Part shown: positions 1 through 41,247 of the stretch, one piece after another
Layout of the letters: each line of letters starts with the position of its first letter
How positions within the stretch are numbered: position 1 is the stretch's first letter
Sequence record: PP410321
DNA: 64,000 nucleotides
Reading direction: 5' to 3' (one strand)
From: Escherichia phage vB_EcoM_CUA3
Position numbers and translations under genes: made by a program
The notes under the pieces: generated by a model
The model's database searches: none
The model's input: only the letters and a program-made list of their open reading frames with translations
Told to the model about the DNA's origin: nothing

Positions 1-68
1 GTTTTCAAAAGATATTTGAATACTGAATCTTTGTGCATAAGTCCTCCTACCACATCCATGTGATTAAA

Positions 69-296
69 TTATTTTCCTAAAGAAATACGGGTAGGTTTTT
101 TACCAAAGTATTCTTCATAAGAGCCATCTAAACGACCCGCTTTAGACCGACAATACGAATCGTACTTTTTGTAATAAGTCATCTCGGTATTATAACGCGG
201 GTGTCTATCGGCCATAATAATACTTAATGGCCAACCTTTGGCATAATCGCGAAGACCATTTATTTTACGAATGTATCTTTTCTTTAATTTTAGCAT
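69..296 (-). CDS. hypothetical small basic protein (75 aa)
   Basis: Minus-strand ORF; its ATG (294-296) overlaps the last codons of the upstream gene (tcATGcTAA); no recognisable motif. Confidence 0.4.
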   Translation of the reverse strand: MLKLKKRYIRKINGLRDYAKGWPLSIIMADRHPRYNTEMTYYKKYDSYCRSKAGRLDGSYEEYFGKKPTRISLGK

Positions 297-514
297 GAGC
301 TCGGGTACCAGATTTTACCATCAGAACGAGCAACGAAGGTACGTCCAGCTTCTTCACCATAACAAGAGCTGTTCAACCAGTCTTCGAGACGAACTTCACC
401 GTCATAATCATCGAGCTCAACACCGAAATCCTGAGCAGAAGCCATTTCTTTTACTTTCTTATACAGTGCAGCCAGTTCGAGTGCCGCTTTTTCTAATTCA
501 TTAATATCAGTCAT
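290..514 (-). CDS. small acidic protein, member 5 of tandem paralog array (C-terminus ...WYPSSC)
   Basis: ORF track; acidic N-terminal helix-like segment; C-terminal Trp-x-Pro-Ser-Ser-Cys-stop shared with the four upstream ORFs. Confidence 0.55.
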   Translation of the reverse strand: MTDINELEKAALELAALYKKVKEMASAQDFGVELDDYDGEVRLEDWLNSSCYGEEAGRTFVARSDGKIWYPSSC

Positions 515-526
515 TTTTTTNANNCC

Positions 527-736
527 TTAGCAAGACATAGAGGAGCTAAACCAGAAACCTTCACCTTCAGGAATACCGTAATCATCACGAACCCATTCGT
601 AATCATCATATTCCGGACTAGAAGCTGGAATATATTCTTCGCCACCGGCGTGGAAGTGCTGACCTGTTTCGTCAGCCACGGACTGGCCTTTACGTACTAA
701 TTCACGGATTTGTTTTTCAATTTCATCAATAGTCAT
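527..736 (-). CDS. small acidic protein, member 4 of tandem paralog array (C-terminus ...WFSSSMSC)
   Basis: ORF track; conserved tail; stop codon followed by TAAGG Shine-Dalgarno-like sequence for the next gene. Confidence 0.55.
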   Translation of the reverse strand: MTIDEIEKQIRELVRKGQSVADETGQHFHAGGEEYIPASSPEYDDYEWVRDDYGIPEGEGFWFSSSMSC

Positions 737-745
737 TTTATTACC

Positions 746-943
746 TTAGCATTCGTAAGAGGATGATACCCAAGAGGTACCACTAATTGTAATACAACCA
801 TTATAAAGCGTGATATGACGTTCCAGGTTACGTTGACCATCGATATAGATATCAGCTTCTTCGCGTTCTTCTTTACAAATCTGGATAACGTTTTCAATAG
901 CTGCGGCTGCAGTACGGATTGCACAATCTAATTCACGAGACAT
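746..943 (-). CDS. small acidic protein, member 3 of tandem paralog array (C-terminus ...WVSSSYEC)
   Basis: ORF track; conserved tail encoded with different synonymous codons than its paralogs. Confidence 0.55.
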   Translation of the reverse strand: MSRELDCAIRTAAAAIENVIQICKEEREEADIYIDGQRNLERHITLYNGCITISGTSWVSSSYEC

Positions 944-952
944 AATATTTCC

Positions 953-1234
953 TTAACATTCAGCAGAAGAGGACACCCAGCCGCCATTTTCTAGGTCGGT
1001 TGTGTAGTCATGAGTATTAACAATAGCCCATTCAGGATGACCATGTTCTTCCCAATGAGCAAGGTCAGCTTTCAAGGCGCCAGGAGAATAATAGTCACCG
1101 CCCATACCGCGAGCAGGGTATATATTAAAATGAGTCTCATATTTGTCTGCAATTTCCTCAGCACGACGAATAGCTTTATGGATGTCATTTACTGCGGCCA
1201 GNNNNTCTTTATTTTTACGGTAATCATTCATCAT
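953..1234 (-). CDS. small acidic protein, member 2 of tandem paralog array (C-terminus ...WVSSSAEC)
   Basis: ORF track; shares the internal EEIADKY...GGDYY segment with member 1; 4 N bases at 1202-1205. Confidence 0.55.
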   Translation of the reverse strand: MMNDYRKNKXXLAAVNDIHKAIRRAEEIADKYETHFNIYPARGMGGDYYSPGALKADLAHWEEHGHPEWAIVNTHDYTTDLENGGWVSSSAEC

Positions 1235-1243
1235 AGCGTTTCC

Positions 1244-1534
1244 TTAGCACATTGCCGAAGAGGAGACCCAAGCACCAACTGTAACGACACCGTTTTCAAC
1301 TTCGCCGCCGTTGTTTTCAATTTCATCTTTAAACCACTGGGAGCATTCATAACCGACCGGATAGTATGTACGTCCTGAACCATAATCGCCGGTACCGAAT
1401 TGGATACCATACTTATCGGCAATAGCTTCACATTTATGTTCGATGATATCTACTTTACCGAGTAGAGCATAGATAGCCTTTTCTGCAGATTTCTCGTCAT
1501 TGTATTCAGGGATTTCAATTTCAATTTTATTCAT
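1244..1534 (-). CDS. small acidic protein, member 1 of tandem paralog array (C-terminus ...WVSSSAMC)
   Basis: ORF track; AIADKYGIQFGTGDYGSG segment resembles member 2; conserved tail. Confidence 0.55.
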   Translation of the reverse strand: MNKIEIEIPEYNDEKSAEKAIYALLGKVDIIEHKCEAIADKYGIQFGTGDYGSGRTYYPVGYECSQWFKDEIENNGGEVENGVVTVGAWVSSSAMC

Positions 1535-1884
1535 GATTTACATTCCTTAATAAAGGTTTCAAGGTCATTACGTTTGGTTTGTTTTACATACTCATTATAA
1601 TTAGCCATCTCTAAAGCATATCTCTTACGGATTGGAGCATTCAAAGCATTTGTATGGCAAATATCATACACGAGAGGGATAAAATAAGTCACGACAGCTG
1701 GAGCGATTATCATATAGAAGCCCATCTCAATAGGCTTGACTCCTTCGATTGCCGCCATAACCGTGGTCATTACCAGACCAACCAGACCTCCGAGCATACC
1801 GGTGATAATTCCCGTAAATAAGGAAATAGCAATATCATATTCAGCCAATTGATAAACATGTGATGAAAGATTAGGCCGTTCCAT
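1531..1884 (-). CDS. small predicted membrane protein (about 117 aa, two hydrophobic helices)
   Basis: ORF 1531..1908; probable start ATG at 1882-1884 preceded by AAAGAGG; long hydrophobic stretches (GIITGMLGGLVGLVMTTVMAAI, FYMIIAPAVVTYFIPLV). Confidence 0.5.
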   Translation of the reverse strand: MERPNLSSHVYQLAEYDIAISLFTGIITGMLGGLVGLVMTTVMAAIEGVKPIEMGFYMIIAPAVVTYFIPLVYDICHTNALNAPIRKRYALEMANYNEYVKQTKRNDLETFIKECKS

Positions 1885-2413
1885 TTTGAACCTCTTTAGC
1901 GTATTCACGGCATTCTTTAATAAAATTATTAAGCTTACGTTGCTGTTTACGACTTTCTAATGTATACTCGTCTGCCAAAATAGTAAGTTCACCTTTATCG
2001 TAATTTTTAATATCCGAATAACTCGGGCGGCGGTCGACCATTCCAAATACATCACCGTTTTCTAGTGCCACATAACATACTAAATGATAATCATCATCTG
2101 CATCATTAATATGTACACAGTCGGTACTCTCGTTTAAAGAATATACCGAATATCTCACTCCGGCGAATTTAGCACTCTGTATACCCAATNNNNNGTCGAT
2201 GATTTCTAAAGCTTCTGCAAAAGAAAGGTCTTCAGCTAAAGCAAAGATAAAGGGTAATTTGGTAGTATCGCCACGGCTAGATGTTCTGCTTAAGAAATCG
2301 TTTGAATAGCCTAGGTCTTGGCGAATTCTATAAAGAACTGAATTGGTTTCATGGGAAAGACCACTATTTTTAAACCAATCAATATTTGATATCAAATTAT
2401 CATATAAACTCAT
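1871..2413 (-). CDS. hypothetical protein (180 aa)
   Basis: ORF track; ATG at 2411-2413 preceded by GGAGGAGAGGAG; 5 N bases inside; no recognised motif. Confidence 0.5.
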   Translation of the reverse strand: MSLYDNLISNIDWFKNSGLSHETNSVLYRIRQDLGYSNDFLSRTSSRGDTTKLPFIFALAEDLSFAEALEIIDXXLGIQSAKFAGVRYSVYSLNESTDCVHINDADDDYHLVCYVALENGDVFGMVDRRPSYSDIKNYDKGELTILADEYTLESRKQQRKLNNFIKECREYAKEVQNGTA

Positions 2414-2436
2414 AATATTCTCCTCTCCTCCAAATA

Positions 2437-2454
2437 GGGAGACCGAAGTCTCCC
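2437..2454 (-). terminator. stem-loop (gggagac-cgaa-gtctccc) between two minus-strand genes; possible attenuator/terminator
   Basis: Perfect 7-bp stem with tetraloop read directly; on the minus strand it is followed by TATTT and then the SD/ATG of the next gene. Confidence 0.4.
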
Positions 2455-2461
2455 GGTAATA

Positions 2462-3055
2462 TTACTTAAGTGAATTAATGTAGTCTTCGATATCAGCAGA
2501 AGTCGTATCCATTCCAACTTGTGGGCCTTTAAACGTTTCTACACGAAGCAGGGTATCTTCAATATCAATCTTAGTCAGTGCAGCGATTTCAACAACATCA
2601 TCGGCAGTAGCAATACCAAGGGCCGCCATATTACGAGTTTCACGAATGTACTCAAGCTTAACCGCTAGTTCCTGGCGAGAGTCATCAAGTTCCTTGACCT
2701 TAAGCTTAATTTCATTACGCATTTCAACATAATCATCGGCTTTCTTACGAAGTTGAGTAGCCGTACGACGATAAAGGAGGCCAAGTTTAGCATGCACCTG
2801 AACATCAGAGCCTTCTTTAATCAGTTTACGAATTTCTCGTTCTTTAGAACTAGCCAGTTGGTCCTTTTCGTTAGCGAGTTCACGGATACGTTTTTCTTCA
2901 TTCACAGACTTAACATGGGCAGTCTGGAGCTCAGTGATTTTATCAATCAGAGTAGAAGCAGCTTTGGTATACTGGTCTTCGATTGACAGGTTCTGAGTCA
3001 TTGCGGTACCCAGTTTAGAACGGATGAATTCAACGATTTTCTTTAAAGTGTTCAT
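2462..3055 (-). CDS. coiled-coil protein (about 198 aa), possibly PspA/IM30-like
   Basis: ORF 2462..3100; probable start ATG 3053-3055 preceded by AAGGAAA; charged heptad-like helical sequence throughout; PspA resemblance is impressionistic only. Confidence 0.45.
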
Positions 3056-3132
3056 AGTATTTCCTTCAGTCGGTTGATATTTTGTAATCCACGAGGACAT
3101 TATACCCTGTCCTCAGAGGTTTGTAAACATTT

Positions 3133-3531
3133 TTATTTCATTTTTGCGAGGCAGATTTCATTGGCTTCCCATTGAGCTTGCTTAATAATAGCTTTGGATA
3201 CAGGAACCCTTTGACCGTAAGTTTTTGATGTTGAGAGAACAATATGTTTGTTTGCTTCATTATGCCAGCCCCATGATTTTTCGCCATGAGTACCTTTAAC
3301 TACAGCTGACACCTCAACAGAGCAACCACCATCAGAAATCTTGGTTTCAACAATCCATTCATTTCTCTCAGCGGCTTCAATTTCCGATCTCCTTTTTTCT
3401 TCATACATGGCGGCCCAATCAGTTTTCGCCAGGTTGAAAGCAAGAGCTTTCTCTAATTCTTTGGCAGCTTTTTGTTGTTCGGGCGATAACGAATTATACA
3501 ACTCTTGCATTTCTTTATCTTCGATGTTCAT
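3133..3531 (-). CDS. hypothetical protein (about 133 aa)
   Basis: ORF 3133..3546 begins with a non-ATG codon in the track; first ATG at 3529-3531 is preceded by AAGGAG; conserved promoter/leader motif lies just upstream. Confidence 0.5.
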   Translation of the reverse strand: MNIEDKEMQELYNSLSPEQQKAAKELEKALAFNLAKTDWAAMYEEKRRSEIEAAERNEWIVETKISDGGCSVEVSAVVKGTHGEKSWGWHNEANKHIVLSTSKTYGQRVPVSKAIIKQAQWEANEICLAKMK

Positions 3532-3551
3532 TATGCTCTCCTTCACTCTGT

Positions 3552-3576
3552 TGTTTTGATAGGTCTATAGTATCAT
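3552..3576 (-). promoter_or_regulatory. conserved promoter/leader motif, copy 1 (minus strand reads ATGATACTATAGACCTATCAAAACA)
   Basis: One of three near-identical ~25-nt copies immediately upstream of minus-strand genes; contains an extended -10-like TGaTACTAT; upstream half masked by N. Confidence 0.4.
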
Positions 3577-4232
3577 NTTNNNNNNNNNNNNNNNNNNNNN
3601 NNNNNNNNNNNNNNNNNNNNNNNNNNNNNNNNNNNNNNNNNNNNNNNNNNNNNNNNNNNNNNNNNNNNNNNNNNNNNNNNNNNNNNNNNNNNNNNNNNNN
3701 NNNNNNNNNNNNNNNNNNNNNNNNNNNNNNNNNNNNNNNNNNNNNNNNNNNNNNNNNNNNNNNNNNNNNNNNNNNNNNNNNNNNNNNNNNNNNNNNNNNN
3801 NNNNNNNNNNNNNNNNNNNNNNNNNNNNNNNNNNNNNNNNNNNNNNNNNNNNNNNNNNNNNNNNNNNNNNNNNNNNNNNNNNNNNNNNNNNNNNNNNNNN
3901 NNNNNNNNNNNNNNNNNNNNNNNNNNNNNNNNNNNNNNNNNNNNNNNNNNNNNNNNNNNNNNNNNNNNNNNNNNNNNNNNNNNNNNNNNNNNNNNNNNNN
4001 NNNNNNNNNNNNNNNNNNNNNNNNNNNNNNNNNNNNNNNNNNNNNNNNNNNNNNNNNNNNNNNNNNNNNNNNNNNNNNNNNNNNNNNNNNNNNNNNNNNN
4101 NNNNNNNNNNNNNNNNNNNNNNNNNNNNNNNNNNNNNNNNNNNNNNNNNNNNNNNNNNNNNNNNNNNNNNNNNNNNNNNNNNNNNNNNNNNNNNNNNNNN
4201 NNNNNNNNNNNNNNNNNNNNNNNNNNNNNNNN

Positions 4233-4240
4233 TATTTATA
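4233..4240 (-). promoter_or_regulatory. T4-type late promoter TATAAATA (minus strand) reading into masked region
   Basis: Plus strand tatttata is the reverse complement of TATAAATA; the downstream gene is masked by N. Confidence 0.4.
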
Positions 4241-4269
4241 CAAAAAAGGCCCAACCTTTCGGAAGGGCC
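4241..4269 (-). terminator. intrinsic terminator hairpin ending the tRNA/small-RNA transcript
   Basis: ggccc aacc-tttc-ggaa gggcc stem-loop, followed on the minus strand by a T run (plus caaaaaa); identical 29-mer recurs at 51443-51471. Confidence 0.55.
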
Positions 4270-4271
4270 TT

Positions 4272-4439
4272 TAACCTAGGGTAACCTTGTCGGGGTTCCA
4301 CCTGCTAGGCAAGTGTTCNGTGCGCCGTTTCAGCTGTGAGATAAGGGACTTTAAGATGAACTCATGTACGCCTTAAAGTCGGGTCTTATTCAGGGAACAT
4401 CAGTCCGACGACTTACCGGTAGCGACCCGGTTTCTTGTT
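4272..4439 (-). ncRNA. candidate small stable RNA between tRNA-Arg and the terminator
   Basis: ~170 nt non-coding, GC-rich interval inside the tRNA transcription unit with no tRNA T-loop signature; T4 is known to carry small stable RNAs in its tRNA cluster. Confidence 0.25.
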
Positions 4440-4515
4440 TGGTCGAGACAGTAGGGATCGAACCTACGACCCAGGACTTAGAAGGTCCTTGCTCTTCCTT
4501 CTGAGCTATGCCTCG
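4440..4515 (-). tRNA. tRNA-Arg (anticodon UCU)
   Basis: Manual cloverleaf fold of the reverse complement: acceptor CGAGGCA/TGTCTCG, D-arm GCTC/GAGC, anticodon loop CTTCTAA, T-arm GTAGG-TTCGATC-CCTAC, encoded CCA; 76 nt. Confidence 0.8.
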
Positions 4516-4519
4516 TATT

Positions 4520-4594
4520 TGGCGGACATGCATGGATTCGAACCATGGACCAATTGATTAACAGTCAACTGCTCTACCACTGAGCTACACATCC
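4520..4594 (-). tRNA. tRNA-Asn (anticodon GUU)
   Basis: Manual fold: acceptor GGATGTG/CATGTCC, D-arm GCTC-AGTGGTA-GAGC, anticodon loop CTGTTAA, T-arm CATGG-TTCGAAT-CCATG, encoded CCA; 75 nt. Confidence 0.8.
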
Positions 4595-4598
4595 AAAT

Positions 4599-4672
4599 TG
4601 GTGGCCCTGGGTGGAATCGAACCACCATCCAGCGATTATGAGTCGCTCGCTTGACCGTCCAGCTACAGGGCC
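4599..4672 (-). tRNA. tRNA with CAU anticodon (Ile2/lysidine-type or Met)
   Basis: Manual fold: acceptor GGCCCTG/CAGGGCC, anticodon stem-loop AGCGA-CTCATAA-TCGCT (resembles the E. coli tRNA-Ile2 anticodon arm), T-arm GGTGG-TTCGATT-CCACC, encoded CCA; D-arm atypical. Confidence 0.65.
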
Positions 4673-5577
4673 TTAATTNNNNNNNNNNNNNNNNNNNNNN
4701 NNNNNNNNNNNNNNNNNNNNNNNNNNNNNNNNNNNNNNNNNNNNNNNNNNNNNNNNNNNNNNNNNNNNNNNNNNNNNNNNNNNNNNNNNNNNNNNNNNNN
4801 NNNNNNNNNNNNNNNNNNNNNNNNNNNNNNNNNNNNNNNNNNNNNNNNNNNNNNNNNNNNNNNNNNNNNNNNNNNNNNNNNNNNNNNNNNNNNNNNNNNN
4901 NNNNNNNNNNNNNNNNNNNNNNNNNNNNNNNNNNNNNNNNNNNNNNNNNNNNNNNNNNNNNNNNNNNNNNNNNNNNNNNNNNNNNNNNNNNNNTCTATTA
5001 TGAAAGGCTCTTTGAGTGAAGAACCTTTGGTAATAGAGGGTATTAATGATAGAGTAATAATATCATATAATTCTTAAAGCATATTAANNNNNNNNNNNNN
5101 NNNNNNNNNNNNNNNNNNNNNNNNNNNNNNNNNNNNNNNNNNNNNNNNNNNNNNNNNNNNNNNNNNNNNNNNNNNNNNNNNNNNNNNNNNNNNNNNNNNN
5201 NNNNNNNNNNNNNNNNNNNNNNNNNNNNNNNNNNNNNNNNNNNNNNNNNNNNNNNNNNNNNNNNNNNNNNNNNNNNNNNNNNNNNNNNNNNNNNNNNNNN
5301 NNNNNNNNNNNNNNNNNNNNNNNNNNNNNNNNNNNNNNNNNNNNNNNNNNNNNNNNNNNNNNNNNNNNNNNNNNNNNNNNNNNNNNNNNNNNNNNNNNNN
5401 NNNNNNNNNNNNNNNNNNNNNNNNNNNNNNNNNNNNNNNNNNNNNNNNNNNNNNNNNNNNNNNNNNNNNNNNNNNNNNNNNNNNNNNNNNNNNNNNNNNN
5501 NNNNNNNNNNNNNNNNNNNNNNNNNNNNNNNNNNNNNNNNNNNNNNNNNNNNNNNNNNCATATTAATATAGTCAAGT

Positions 5578-5837
5578 TTAATAGAAGCAATCTTTAAAGG
5601 ATTTTTAAAGATGTCGTATTCGACCAATCCATTTTCAGTTGCGGTATAAAAAGTAAAGTTGACAGAATTATAACGATGGCTGTTAACTTTGAGTTTAACA
5701 CCGCTTGAACTACGGCCAATATTAACCTGTTGAACATCAAGCACAGCATCTTTGCCGTAATTTCGAATCAACAACTCGGCTGCAACCTGATCGGATTTAT
5801 ATCCATTCTCTGGATTAGTAACCTTAACGTATAACAT
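5578..5837 (-). CDS. hypothetical protein, N-terminal part only (C-terminal part masked)
   Basis: Minus ORF starting ATG 5835-5837 (MLYVKVTNPENGYK...); reads into the N run 5088-5558. Confidence 0.4.
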
Positions 5838-6023
5838 TTAACCCTCGTCTACAATAGTGTGGGTATTGGCATTAACAATCTGCCACCAGTCAAAACGATT
5901 GGAACCATAACAAGGCTTATTCTCGTTTTCTTTAATGATATCGCGCAGTTCATCTTCAGNGAAGCCTTTNGCGATTAAGTCAGCATAACCGCCACGAGGG
6001 TAATAGTTATCACCCGCAAACAA
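5838..6023 (-). CDS. hypothetical protein, C-terminal fragment (N-terminal part masked)
   Basis: Open frame ending at stop 5838-5840 (...NRFDWWQIVNANTHTIVDEG); upstream portion lies in N run 6026-6238. Confidence 0.35.
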   Translation of the reverse strand: MFAGDNYYPRGGYADLIXKGFXEDELRDIIKENENKPCYGSNRFDWWQIVNANTHTIVDEG

Positions 6024-6238
6024 AANNNNNNNNNNNNNNNNNNNNNNNNNNNNNNNNNNNNNNNNNNNNNNNNNNNNNNNNNNNNNNNNNNNNNNNNNNN
6101 NNNNNNNNNNNNNNNNNNNNNNNNNNNNNNNNNNNNNNNNNNNNNNNNNNNNNNNNNNNNNNNNNNNNNNNNNNNNNNNNNNNNNNNNNNNNNNNNNNNN
6201 NNNNNNNNNNNNNNNNNNNNNNNNNNNNNNNNNNNNNN

Positions 6239-6424
6239 TTACTCACCTTTAGAGATTTTATCCATAACGAAAGAGATTGAACCAATTAAGAATGCCACTA
6301 CTAAAGAGATTGTATTCTCGGAAGTTGTAAGCAAATCCAACATGAATCCTGCAAACATACTAAAGCCAAAAGCAGTAACAGCGGCCAGTGCAGTAACATT
6401 TCTAATTAATTCGCAACGTTTCAT
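6239..6424 (-). CDS. small predicted membrane protein (61 aa)
   Basis: ORF track; two hydrophobic segments ([33 protein letters not shown]); conserved promoter/leader motif copy immediately upstream. Confidence 0.5.
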   Translation of the reverse strand: MKRCELIRNVTALAAVTAFGFSMFAGFMLDLLTTSENTISLVVAFLIGSISFVMDKISKGE

Positions 6425-6445
6425 TTTATTATCCNNNNNCTCATN

Positions 6446-6469
6446 TGTTTTGATAGGGCTATAGTATCA
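6446..6469 (-). promoter_or_regulatory. conserved promoter/leader motif, copy 2 (one substitution)
   Basis: tgttttgatagggctatagtatca; same element as 3552-3576 and 6812-6836. Confidence 0.4.
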
Positions 6470-6764
6470 NNNNNNNNNNNNNNNNNNNNNNNNNNNNNNN
6501 NNNNNNNNNNNNNNNNNNNNNNNNNNNNNNNNNNNNNNNNNNNNNNNNNNNNNNNNNNNNNNNNNNNNNNNNNNNNNNNNNNNNNNNNNNNNNNNNNNNN
6601 NNNNNNNNNNNNNNNNNNNNNNNNNNNNNNNNNNNNNNNNNNNNNNNNNNNNNNNNNNNNNNNNNNNNNNNNNNNNNNNNNNNNNNNNNNNNNNNNNNNN
6701 NNNNNNNNNNNNNNNNNNNNNNNNNNNNNNNNNNNNNNNNNNNNNNNNNNNNNNNNNNNNNNNN

Positions 6765-6786
6765 TAAATTCTTGATAAGTTTTCAT
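6765..6786 (-). CDS. internal protein (IP) gene, visible N-terminus only: MKTYQEF capsid-targeting sequence
   Basis: ATG at 6784-6786 followed by codons for K-T-Y-Q-E-F; I recall MKTYQEFIAE as the N-terminal capsid targeting sequence of T4 internal proteins; gene body masked by N (6470-6764). Confidence 0.55.
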
Positions 6787-6811
6787 TTTNNNGTTTCCAT
6801 TTGGTTNNNTT

Positions 6812-6836
6812 TGTTTTGATAGGTCTATAGTATCAT
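6812..6836 (-). promoter_or_regulatory. conserved promoter/leader motif, copy 3, upstream of the IP gene
   Basis: tgttttgataggtctatagtatcat, identical to copy 1. Confidence 0.4.
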
Positions 6837-7072
6837 NNNTATAGNCCTTGTAAANAACTTTTNNNNNNNNNNNNNNNNNNNNNNNNNNNNNNNNNNNNNN
6901 NNNNNNNNNNNNNNNNNNNNNNNNNNNNNNNNNNNNNNNNNNNNNNNNNNNNNNNNNNNNNNNNNNNNNNNNNNNNNNNNNNNNNNNNNNNNNNNNNNNN
7001 NNNNNNNNNNNNNNNNNNNNNNNNNNNNNNNNNNNNNNNNNNNNNNNNNNNNNNNNNNNNNNNNNNNNNNTT

Positions 7073-7780
<708 letters not shown>

Positions 7781-7788
<8 letters not shown>

Positions 7789-8542
7789 TTTTATTTCCTA
7801 ATAATTTATCAATAGTAGTGTATAGTTCAGAAAGAGTGCCGTTATTTTCAACAACAACGTCACCAGGTAAAATTGGTAGACCCGCTTCAGTGATGTGCGA
7901 GTCTTGTACTTGACCGGTTTCAGCGCGAACTACATGAATAATCGTAGCACCCATCGCTCTGAGCGAATCAATTTCGTGTGTTTGACGAACATCAGGTACG
8001 ACATAGTATTTCGCATCAGAGTATATTTTATCAAAATAGTCTAAAGCGAACAACTTAACCCAATACATCTTATCAAATTGGTTAACAATAATATCAGTCC
8101 CAAGGGTCTGCATGAGACGACGTACTGACCAATTGTTATTTTTATTTATTACTTCAAACAGCTGGTCTTTTGTTTCTTCAGACAGATACTGAACTGGGGT
8201 AAGACCATAATGATACGCGGTACGAACATCAATTCCTGGAATAGGAAGGATATTATTCAGCTTAACAATAGCATGTTCAAAGATATCAATAACATCATAT
8301 GGTTTTAAAGGAAGGGCTTCTTCACGGTCATAACCGATGCCTTCAAAACAATTAAAATCCAATTTAGGCATATAGCTACGGTCGAATACAGGGTCATCAG
8401 ATATGTATTCATAAGCTTCAGCCAGATACTTTTTAATAGGACCCGCGAGTTGGAATTTTACAGAATCCATATTCTCAATTACATAGTTAGCAACGGTATC
8501 CTTACCGCTACGTTTGATTCCTACAATTGATATTAGTTTCAT
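7781..8542 (-). CDS. 1: gp1 deoxynucleoside monophosphate kinase
   Basis: MKLISIVGIKRSGKDT P-loop-like N-terminus and synteny (between 57A and 3); stop/start overlaps with neighbours. Confidence 0.85.
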
Positions 8543-9132
8543 TATTTTCTCATAGATGGATGCATAGACATACGAGCCACACGTTGTTCGGCATACGAAT
8601 CAATTTGTGGACGACCTGTAACTATTGTACCATCTATTTCTACAGCAAACGACTTGAAGTTGAATGTTGCTGTAGCGATTATAGCAGGGTCAGAATCTTC
8701 TTTATACGAGTATTGGATTTCCGATAGGTCGGACGGCCAACCGCCGTAGTAATGAATGCTCATTACGATTTTCTGTTTGTTGTTATCAAGGATATGGAGG
8801 GTAATCGCTTCAGGCAAGCCTTTAGGGTGCCAGGCTTCGGATTCATGTGTTACATAGTTGTTTAATGATAACATCCATTTATAAACGTCCATCCATGATT
8901 TCAACTCACGGTCTACAAGAAAGTTTACAATCAAGGGGTCGAATTCTACTGTAGAACCTGGCAGCTTAGCACGATGTATGCCCTGGGTCGATCCCGGGAC
9001 GTCTGAGATAGGAATATGGATACCAGGTAGTGTTACATCTTGCACGTTCAATTTGAATGACTGCGTCATTCCTGAGTCACTAACCTCTAAGATAAAGTTG
9101 GTAGTGTTAGTTTGGTTAAATAAACCGTTCAT
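8542..9132 (-). CDS. 3: gp3 tail completion / sheath stabiliser protein
   Basis: Synteny (1-3-2-4); start chosen at ATG 9130-9132 preceded by AGGAA; the ORF-track N-terminal extension to 9297 overlaps gp2 and is rejected; alternative start at 9069. Confidence 0.7.
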   Translation of the reverse strand: MNGLFNQTNTTNFILEVSDSGMTQSFKLNVQDVTLPGIHIPISDVPGSTQGIHRAKLPGSTVEFDPLIVNFLVDRELKSWMDVYKWMLSLNNYVTHESEAWHPKGLPEAITLHILDNNKQKIVMSIHYYGGWPSDLSEIQYSYKEDSDPAIIATATFNFKSFAVEIDGTIVTGRPQIDSYAEQRVARMSMHPSMRK

Positions 9133-40910: not shown

Positions 40911-41247
40911 CTGTACNNNNNNNNNNNNNNNNNNNNNNNNNNNNNNNNNNNNNNNNNNNNNNNNNNNNNNNNNNNNNNNNNNNNNNNNNNNNNNNNNNNN
41001 NNNNNNNNNNNNNNNNNNNNNNNNNNNNNNNNNNNNNNNNNNNNNNNNNNNNNNNNNNNNNNNNNNNNNNNNNNNNNNNNNNNNNNNNNNNNNNNNNNNN
41101 NNNNNNNNNNNNNNNNNNNNNNNNNNNNNNNNNNNNNNNNNNNNNNNNNNNNNNNNNNNNNNNNNNNNNNNNNNNNNNNNNNNNNNNNNNNNNNNNNNNN
41201 NNNNNNNNNNNNNNNNNNNNNNNNNNNNNNNNNNNNNNNNNNACCTT

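Follow-up and report, generated by a model that had tools for sequence, protein, structure and literature searches.

Repeated minus-strand elements at the internal-protein and tRNA locus of Escherichia phage vB_EcoM_CUA3 probably represent T4-type early promoters bordering exchangeable genes

Why does a sequence of about 25 nucleotides (nt) recur on the minus strand ahead of three different genes in Escherichia phage vB_EcoM_CUA3? We analyzed 64,000 nt of its sequence record PP410321 (this whole stretch is referred to as the window), in which an earlier note had described the repeat as the downstream half of a sigma70-type promoter, of early or middle class, together with the start of a leader, and as one module recycled before three genes. 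Our explanation, taken as a whole, is very likely: the copies are the cores (-15 to about +9) of T4-type early promoters that flank swappable internal-protein (ip) cargo, in an architecture like that of the PeSL cassettes (early promoter plus stem-loop) of phages such as RB49 and phi1. Such promoters, which are strong and precede many early genes in T4-like coliphages, and their arrangement have already been described in the literature; the kind of element is known, and the result extends the T4, PST, and RB49/phi1 descriptions to another genus.

The repeat is present at the three minus-strand sites, as the earlier note had it. The 24-nt motif TGATACTATAGACCTATCAAAACA matches without mismatch at 6812-6835 (copy 1) and 3552-3575 (copy 3), and copy 2, at 6446-6469, is the one-base variant TGATACTATAGCCCTATCAAAACA (one mismatch, A to C); the A with which copy 2 had been thought to begin is not observed, position 6470 being N. 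With up to three mismatches allowed, the 24-mer has three matches in the 64 kb, compared with a mean of 0.00 over 100 dinucleotide-preserving shuffles, and a 15-mer has three matches in the window against 0.27 expected. The start codons proposed for the downstream genes (6786, 6424, and 3531 for copies 1, 2, and 3) stand, although each lies 20-25 nt past the motif and not at up to 50 nt. Nothing beyond the three copies emerged from a loose 14-mer scan of the window (up to three mismatches; 18 matches versus 14 expected), and an N-tolerant 17-mer core scan of the window returned only these copies and the plus-strand palindrome partner of copy 1.

The window belongs to the JS98/JS10-type phages (genus Dhakavirus, Tevenvirinae), with 95-97% identity in the region examined, and it is in exact ungapped register with JS10 (EU863409), positions 1-64000 corresponding to JS10 bases 64001-128000 with 94.1% identity counted at non-N positions. 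N accounts for 18.5% of the window, spread over 99 runs, and the runs that were checked (3.3-7.1 kb) coincide with JS10 genes that are absent or replaced in other isolates, namely the ip cargo gene, an IP-like open reading frame (ORF) upstream of it, the N-terminal half of trna.3, and three ORFs around the tRNAs. The record looks like a reference-guided consensus on a JS10 scaffold, of a phage that is itself nearer to dhaeg in the 3.3-7.1 kb region. The bases under N are irrecoverable from the window and were therefore read in relatives, for which we used eight Dhakavirus genomes (JS10, JS98, MN04, dhaeg, CLB_P2, IME281, AnYang, and IME08).

In a reference-guided consensus, short conserved islands, the promoters among them, could contain multi-mapped reads, and gene adjacencies beside N runs may stem from the reference and not from the sample. 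The repeat could then be a mapping artefact, with reads of many paralogous promoters piled on the JS10 promoter positions, and the exact JS10 register, the N runs around the islands, and the scattered Ns within them are of the kind that this would produce. However, the same motif occupies the same three sites in eight independently assembled genomes. The window also retains a site-specific AGCCC variant in copy 2, which is found at the orthologous site in all eight complete Dhakavirus genomes, and its copy 1 leader is of the dhaeg/IME08 type and not of the JS10 type; because of these two features the promoter islands look correctly placed, and we regard an artefact as highly unlikely.

The architecture of a complete promoter is most readily seen at copy 1. 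The earlier note took all of the -35 halves to be hidden by N, which is so for copies 2 and 3, but at copy 1 the -35 hexamer TTTACA (minus strand, 6854-6849) is directly readable, together with most of a repeat in the spacer. Position 6855 is N where relatives carry the G of GTTTACA, a remnant of an A-rich UP-like tract (aaaa) remains upstream at 6862-6859, and relatives have aaaaagatGTTTACA and aaaaatgtTTTACA at this -35. The core (6812-6835) has TG at 6835-6834 and the -10 hexamer TACTAT at 6832-6827, and the predicted +1 is the A at 6820, which opens the conserved initial transcribed sequence ATCAAAACA (6820-6812); here and below, +1 positions are inferred from a 7-nt distance to the -10 hexamer. 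A consensus scan of the dhaeg copy 1 site gives TTTACA, 17 nt, and TACTAT, with TG present.

Copy 2 (core 6446-6469, minus strand) has TG at 6469-6468, TACTAT at 6466-6461, and a predicted +1 at the A at 6454, from which ATCAAAACA follows; upstream of it, relatives read GTTTACAACGGGCT(T/C)TAGTGA. At copy 3 (core 3552-3575, minus strand; upstream half masked) the TG is at 3575-3574, TACTAT is at 3572-3567, and the predicted +1 is the A at 3560, again followed by ATCAAAACA, and relatives have an intrinsic terminator, an A-rich tract, and GTTTAC in succession upstream.

The relatives supply what is masked. All three sites of dhaeg and JS10 have an A-rich tract, (G)TTTACA, a 16-17 nt spacer, TGATACTAT, AG(A/C/G)CCT, and ATCAAAACA, and continue with a leader of 10-25 nt, a Shine-Dalgarno (SD) sequence, and ATG. 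A consensus scan of the three sites in the relatives returns TTTACA, 16-17 nt, and TACTAT with TG, and dhaeg, JS10, and the six other Dhakavirus genomes each have a -35 of the GTTTAC(A/T) type at the three orthologous sites. The UP-like A-tract reads aaaaa(g/t) in relatives, and the JS10 consensus has A at -43 to -39 and at -53 to -49. The extended -10, TGaTACTAT, is present in all three window copies, and its TG, T-12, A-11, A-8, and T-7 are invariant (2.0 bits) over 30 JS10 sites. With the full architecture at the same sites in relatives and in T4, the proposal that the repeat is the downstream half of a sigma70-type promoter with the start of its leader is borne out.

Is the promoter early or middle? 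When the upstream bases of relatives are compared with both consensus types, the match is to the early one, and of the two classes offered by the earlier note only the first survives. T4 early promoters are built from UP, -35, TGn, and -10 elements with extra consensus regions (PMC2988021), and both GTTTAC at -36 to -31 and logos that are specific to a genus have been described (PMC1524935). The three elements are predicted early promoters and not MotA-dependent middle promoters, because in relatives the three sites have GTTTACA at -35 and lack a MotA box, which would read (a/t)(a/t)(a/t)TGCTT(t/c)A and be centred at -30. They also lie directly upstream of, and point into, early-strand genes at T4 early-promoter positions.

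A MotA/AsiA-dependent middle promoter could draw on the TGn-extended -10, which is shared by about half of T4 middle promoters (PMC2988021), but the GCTTTA in the copy 2 spacer (-25 to -20) is misplaced, lying 7 nt from the -10 compared with the 11-13 nt of MotA spacing, and we give this reading very little credence. A proper MotA-type pattern nearby provides a contrast: on the minus strand at 5081-5057 the window has TGCTTTA (5081-5075), 12 nt, and TATTAT, overlapping the trna.2 stop codon directly upstream of the tRNA genes. This segment aligns with the T4 stretch from trna.2 to tRNA-Gln, which includes the start, at 72593, of the listed middle promoter PtRNAE. The T4 late promoter was also considered and rejected, the octamer TATAAATA (-13 to -6) being absent from all three elements.

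As T4-type early promoters, these sites would be recognized by host sigma70 RNA polymerase without a phage factor, through the UP-like A-tract, GTTTAC(A), the 16-17 nt spacer, and TGaTACTAT. Transcription would start at the A of ATCAA, some 7 nt past the -10, and the transcript would open with the ATCAAAACA leader followed by the SD and the ATG. Copy 1 would then drive immediate-early expression of an internal-protein gene; copy 2, that of a trna.4-trna.3-trna.2 unit and onward toward the tRNA genes; and copy 3, that of e.8 or of the ORF starting at 3531.

How special are the three copies? When a position-weight matrix seeded with the motif was run over the complete JS10 genome, it settled on 30 sites above threshold; every one precedes a start codon and lies on the minus (early) strand, and a shuffled genome gave 0. 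Their consensus is TGaTAcTATAgaCCTATCAAc, or in extended form aaaaa..tt..AaaaA...gTTtacatct.Ct.tagacaTGaTAcTATAgaCCTATCAActaa, and the information content is 1-2 bits per position from -15 to +7 over the 30 promoters. The shorter core TACTATAGACCTATCAA occurs 15 times in JS10, always on the minus strand, and the exact 20-mer TGATACTATAGACCTATCAA and a 17-mer occur 12 and 15 times, with 0 on the plus strand. The motif is thus the core of a predicted early-promoter consensus shared across the genus, of which JS10 has at least 30 copies, and not a three-copy module, so that the notion of one module recycled before three genes does not hold. The copies would be alike through a single tight consensus held at these sites. 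GenBank records of the JS98/JS10 genus leave early promoters unmarked, and the three sites and about 30 more can now be labelled as such in JS98/JS10-type genomes.

The only feature special to these copies, as a local signature, is the AAAACA tail (+4 to +9; ...ATCAAAACA), which is present in five of the 30 JS10 promoters (70835, 70469, 67575, 62222, and 105220). The first three are the window copies, and four of the five lie within 8.6 kb (permutation p = 0.002). The fourth copy of this sub-variant, JS10 105220, corresponds to window position ~41220, inside the N run 40917-41242, and the fifth, JS10 62222, is just left of the window. The count of three is a product of window limits and masking, and only three are seen because most of the window consists of late plus-strand structural genes. 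The shared tail would fit gene conversion, or local homogenization, among neighboring promoters best.

Recent duplication of a mobile promoter cassette peculiar to these three genes would also account for some of this pattern: copies 1 and 3 have the same 24-mer, the tail is rare and clustered, and JS10 62222 resembles a mosaic of the copy 1 spacer and the copy 3 leader. We consider it quite improbable, however, as the core to +3 is common to 12-17 other JS10 promoters and the upstream halves of the three copies are not mutual nearest relatives. The data point toward orthologous promoter sites that cluster by position rather than by genome.

Comparison with T4 and other Tequatrovirus phages also weighs against recent duplication. 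The gene order in T4 (AF158101) is as here (57B, ip, trna.4/.3/.2, tRNAs, e.8), and promoters of this type (for example, GTTTACATACTGATGAGGTAGTGATACTATTACCTCATCAAAATT...) are found there in the gaps that precede ipI, trna.4, and e.8. In the orthologous locus of fPS-90, a Tequatrovirus, the record marks a 'predicted early promoter' ahead of trna.4 and of both ip genes; these elements recur in phage PST, where they lie between ipV, ipVI, and trna.4; and a 91-nt query spanning copy 1 matched 505 phage records, many at ip loci, those of Tequatrovirus included. With promoters at corresponding places in T4, fPS-90, and PST, the three positions are therefore ancient, being common to T4 as well, and did not arise by recent insertion of a single module.

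The likeness extends to the A-tract, GTTTAC, the 16-17 nt spacer, TGnTAcTAT, the ..CCTATCAAc.. around +1, and the strand logic, whereas the Dhakavirus core is TATAGACCTATC and that of Tequatrovirus is TATTACCC/CTCATC. The T4 sites also differ among themselves (ATCAAAATT, ATCAACTAC, and ATCAACTAC), in contrast to the three Dhakavirus sites, which share ATCAAAACA. The T4 early-promoter consensus, credited to Liebig & Rueger 1989 and Miller et al. 2003, is reviewed in PMC2988021 and PMC1524935.

The conservation from -6 to +9 (AGACCTATCAAc / AGACCTATCAAAACA) raises a further question, in that it exceeds what sigma70 needs. It could mark an operator or an RNA 5'-end signal for a putative phage factor, e.g., for early-transcription shut-off or mRNA processing, the promoter then being half of the function. 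Information content of 1.0-1.6 bits per position from -3 to +7 over the 30 promoters is consistent with such a signal, as are the presence of CCTATCAAC in T4 as well, the unexplained extra consensus in T4 early promoters, and the persistence of early shut-off without AsiA (PMC2988021). The same conservation could, however, reflect optimization of open-complex formation and promoter escape, or the 3' arm of a hairpin. A factor-binding signal would be compatible with the early-promoter explanation; as the better account of the repeat we think it quite improbable.

What do the promoters flank? Behind copy 1 are a leader and the first seven codons, ATGAAAACTTATCAAGAATTT (6765-6811, minus strand; ATG at 6786), after which the window turns to N; the leader is A/C-rich with a weak GGA SD, and the codons encode MKTYQEF, the capsid-targeting start of an internal protein. 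The N run that follows (6470-6764) covers the JS10-type ip cargo gene and the -35 and spacer of copy 2, coincides with JS10 fam19 at 70475-70768, and is the exchangeable cassette slot. This internal-protein gene is unannotated in the GenBank records of JS10 (2684-2977 of our locus L002) and JS98 (1283-1576 of L009), although it has a strong promoter, a leader, and an MKTYQEF start; small internal-protein genes behind these promoters are thus also missed by some records of the genus.

Downstream of copy 2 are its leader (..GGATAATAAAATG) and trna.4 (together 6239-6445, minus strand; ATG at 6424, stop at 6239), a gene so annotated in JS10, JS98, and T4, whose product is a predicted membrane protein of 61 amino acids matching phrog_1692. 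It is the first gene of a unit that continues into trna.3, trna.2, and the tRNA genes. Copy 3 is followed by the leader ACAGAGTGAAGGAGAGCATA and a 132-amino-acid ORF starting at 3531 (together 3133-3551, minus strand), an adjacency that is JS10-like. The view that copy 3 serves this gene is accurate for that arrangement only: copy 3 precedes e.8 in seven of the eight genomes, in which e.8 and a second promoter lie between it and the 3531-type ORF, and it stands directly before the ORF in JS10 alone. The adjacency in the window may come from the JS10 scaffold.

In the eight Dhakavirus genomes, compared from gene 57B through e.6, the interval between the copy 1 and copy 2 promoters (P1 and P2) contains three cargo sets from different PHROG families, mutually unrelated: one 97-amino-acid protein of unknown function in JS10, JS98, and MN04 (phrog_27873), a different internal virion protein of 92 amino acids in dhaeg and CLB_P2 (phrog_4363), and two internal head/virion proteins in IME281, AnYang, and IME08 (phrog_8765 and phrog_7673). 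All of the cargo proteins share an MK(T/A)YQEF start. Pairwise identity is ~90-100% through P1, the leader, and ATGAAAACTTATCAAGAATTT, collapses inside the cargo after MKTYQEF (codon 7), and returns exactly at the P2 -35, directly past the cargo stop codon; the window N run, read as 6764-6470 on the minus strand, occupies the same interval. Modular gene shuffling, which the earlier note had suspected, is thus well supported, with breakpoints at the promoter and capsid-targeting flanks.

P1, its leader, and the seven codons on the left, together with P2 on the right, may serve as homology arms for cargo swaps between co-infecting phages, because these flanks are conserved between such phages, and the exchange presumably uses the general homologous recombination of the phage. 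The breakpoint patterns match both the PeSL model and the older description of T-even IP loci, where repeated early-promoter/stem-loop elements were reported (Repoila et al. 1994 EMBO J, as quoted in PMC2839356 and PMC4122927). As far as those quotations go, the locus, the cargo type (MKTYQEF... internal proteins), and the idea of a shuffled IP palette are the same, whereas that work concerned T-even phages of the T4 genus and ours concerns the JS98/JS10 genus, which has a core variant of its own and in which three cargo sets are documented. Integron cassettes, and the linker sequences of modular phage evolution, similarly have short conserved boundaries and a fixed, expressed slot in which unrelated genes are exchanged, but integrons use a dedicated recombinase and an attC-like site, neither of which is present here, and the likeness is an analogy only.

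The promoters bracket a slot where injected internal proteins swap between related phages. IPI counteracts gmrSD, and infection of E. coli ECOR17 requires IPIII, which presumably counters an unidentified defense system (PMC9391042). Some internal proteins are anti-defense factors, and the region is therefore useful for finding new anti-defense genes; it may also be a useful place for engineering host range in therapeutic Dhakavirus phages.

Short repeated elements with a palindrome inside, in a region where homing endonuclease genes are found, could instead be the terminal repeats of a small mobile element, either like a miniature inverted-repeat transposable element or linked to a homing endonuclease. 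Such an origin is contradicted by orientation and placement: all 30 JS10 copies have the same direction and a fixed distance upstream of a start codon, with no inverted pairs and no target-site duplications among them, and we judge it exceedingly unlikely. AnYang has an annotated homing endonuclease gene downstream of trna.2 (3031-3696 of our locus L012), and T4 has segB inside its tRNA cluster; homing endonuclease genes are a further source of local mosaicism, independent of the promoters.

The remaining feature of a PeSL is a stem-loop, which is found at two of the three copies (1 and 2). In RB49 and phi1 these stem-loops are mostly between -35 and -10 or overlap the -10 (Arbiol 2010, PMC2839356), and for one of the stems transcription termination has been demonstrated (PMC2839356). 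The inverted repeat at JS10 copy 1, AGGTCTATAG-8 nt-CTATAGACCT, is perfect over 10 bp; its stem spans the spacer and the last four bases of the -10 hexamer and runs on to -1, with a predicted fold of -18.0 kcal/mol (z = -6.2; 0 of 200 shuffles as stable). Eight of the ten pairs are readable in the window (6821-6848, minus strand), where the 5' arm aggNctataN lies in the spacer at 6848-6839, the loop is at 6838-6831, and the 3' arm CTATAGACCT, at 6830-6821, overlaps the -10 hexamer and extends to -1. The copy 2 stem, GGGCTnTAG/CTATAGCCC (GGGCTtTAG in JS10), is 9 bp long and contains a single mismatch (z = -2.6 for JS10, -1.9 for dhaeg). At copy 3 no significant hairpin is embedded (z = 0.0 for JS10, -1.4 for dhaeg); a separate canonical terminator hairpin lies upstream. 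The T4 ipI promoter has the stem GATGAGGTA/TACCTCATC (z = -4.1).

The pattern is not confined to these sites: 12 of the 30 JS10 promoters fold with z < -2. Hairpins were evaluated by per-promoter folding, spacer re-pairing, and spacer shuffling. JS10 spacers are complementary to their own cores (z = -8.6 versus shuffled spacers), and the observed mean was reached in none of 20,000 permutations that assigned spacers to other promoters. In another class, the spacer is complementary to the leader and SD of its promoter (z = -9.2; permutation p = 0.00085). Since the promoters are mutually related, these statistics overstate independence. Paralogues covary, in that the P2-specific C at -4 is matched by a spacer G and TATTACCCTATC cores accompany GGTAGGGTA spacers, and several stems contain G-T pairs, which are better tolerated in an RNA than in a DNA helix. 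A single-register covariation alignment across genera was dropped, the CTATAG-centred stems of Dhakavirus and the TAGGGTA/TACCCTA stems of Tequatrovirus being in different registers.

In about seven JS10 early promoters, the spacer and the leader with its SD are exact reverse complements (e.g., ATCTCCTGTAG...CTACAGGAGAT); examples, at 168991, 138948, 58339, 56052, 47107, and 7741, lie outside the window, and their variable bases covary (ATTAG/CTAAT and TCAT/ATGA). Read-through RNA would hide the SD at such promoters, and RNA begun at the promoter would not.

PeSL cassettes (RB49/phi1, PST/T4, and nt-1/KVP40; PMC2839356 and Comeau 2014, PMC4122927) and the present elements have in common an early promoter with a stem-loop, hyperplastic regions beside variable ORFs, and indels or replacements bounded by the elements. 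They differ in that the stems here are A/T-rich (AGGTCTATAG/CTATAGACCT) and not polyG/polyC, with no T run after them, and copy 3 is without a stem; Arbiol et al. called the T-even IP-locus elements analogues, not homologues, of the RB49 PeSLs (PMC2839356). A second comparison is with the hairpin-embedded promoters of T4 e, soc, 49, and I-TevI (PMC3014915), which also lie inside a hairpin such that read-through RNA holds both arms and RNA from the inner promoter is without the 5' arm. Those are late promoters with the SD and AUG in the 3' arm, in contrast to window copies 1 and 2, where the 3' arm is the -10/+1 region, and an SD-pairing version is seen at some other JS10 early promoters.

How might the hairpins act? 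In copies 1 and 2 the free spacer may have evolved complementarity to the -10/+1 region, such that RNA reading through from upstream folds into a hairpin that could act in attenuation, processing, or insulation of the read-through RNA. More generally, and only tentatively, since we think it rather less probable than otherwise, the early-promoter spacer of Dhakavirus might systematically be the 5' arm of an RNA hairpin whose 3' arm is either the promoter's own -10/+1 region or the SD of the gene (ATCTCCTGTAG/CTACAGGAGAT, JS10 58339 and 56052), so that read-through RNA is shut, attenuated, or processed at cassette boundaries and RNA from the own promoter is translatable. Hairpin spacers would then make each promoter-gene cassette autonomous and freely exchangeable, and the hairpin device of the late genes e, soc, and 49 would extend to early promoters genome-wide. 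What may be fresh here lies only in this systematic complementarity of spacers to core or SD, and it would extend the T4 device (PMC3014915).

We note, however, that several points weigh against early promoters in a PeSL-like exchange architecture. Within the window the -35 is readable for copy 1 alone and is masked at copies 2 and 3, and JS10 scaffolding makes both the gene adjoining copy 3 and the exact bases of the short islands less certain. Literature searches gave no usable start-site maps of T4 or Dhakavirus at these loci, and no start-site or time-course data for any Dhakavirus. There is no T run after the stems of copies 1 and 2, neither of which is called by a terminator scan, and the embedded hairpin is lacking at copy 3. 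The junction of the e.8 indel lies in the SD (GGAGAG|CATAATG versus GGAGAG|TAAAATG) and not in the promoter core, and the P1-P2 swap needs conserved orthologous flanks only, not recombination between paralogous copies.

Several other observations concern the surrounding region. Searched against Rfam at the gathering threshold, positions 1-9000 of the window matched three tRNAs alone, with no known RNA family matching the elements. Downstream of tRNA-Arg on the minus strand, window positions 4233-4440 resemble the 3' part of T4 stable RNA C (species 1), with no Rfam family match for this stretch, which ends in a hairpin, GGCCCTTCCGAAAGGTTGGGCC, and a T run, and has the late octamer TATAAATA directly after it, at 4240-4233.

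The second early-type promoter between e.8 and the next ORF is present in dhaeg (5463-5500 of our locus L001), in JS98 (5493-5545 of L009), and at the T4 e.8|e.7 junction, and it has a 9-10 bp inverted repeat across the spacer and -10, with arms CGGGCTCAT...ATGAGCCCG in dhaeg and ATAGGCTNAT...ATGAGCCTAT in T4. Both e.8 and this promoter are missing from JS10 and from the window as scaffolded. Directly after 57B, relatives have a small ORF (JS10, 2397-2603 of L002) that is unannotated or variably annotated, corresponds to the window N run 6863-7070, and is absent from AnYang; it begins with a capsid-targeting-like ..K(S/T)Y(K/N/S)EFLTEA.., in some genomes from a GTG overlapping the 57B stop, and probably encodes a further internal protein. 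In trna.3, two alternative N-terminal parts occur, MYKVYADYQANPSEKPD... in dhaeg (3233-3613 of L001) and MNVEYYVYADYENNPSKD... in the others (JS10, 3231-3632 of L002), with the C-terminal part in common and the window N run 6026-6238 at this position, a pattern that is a within-gene module swap.

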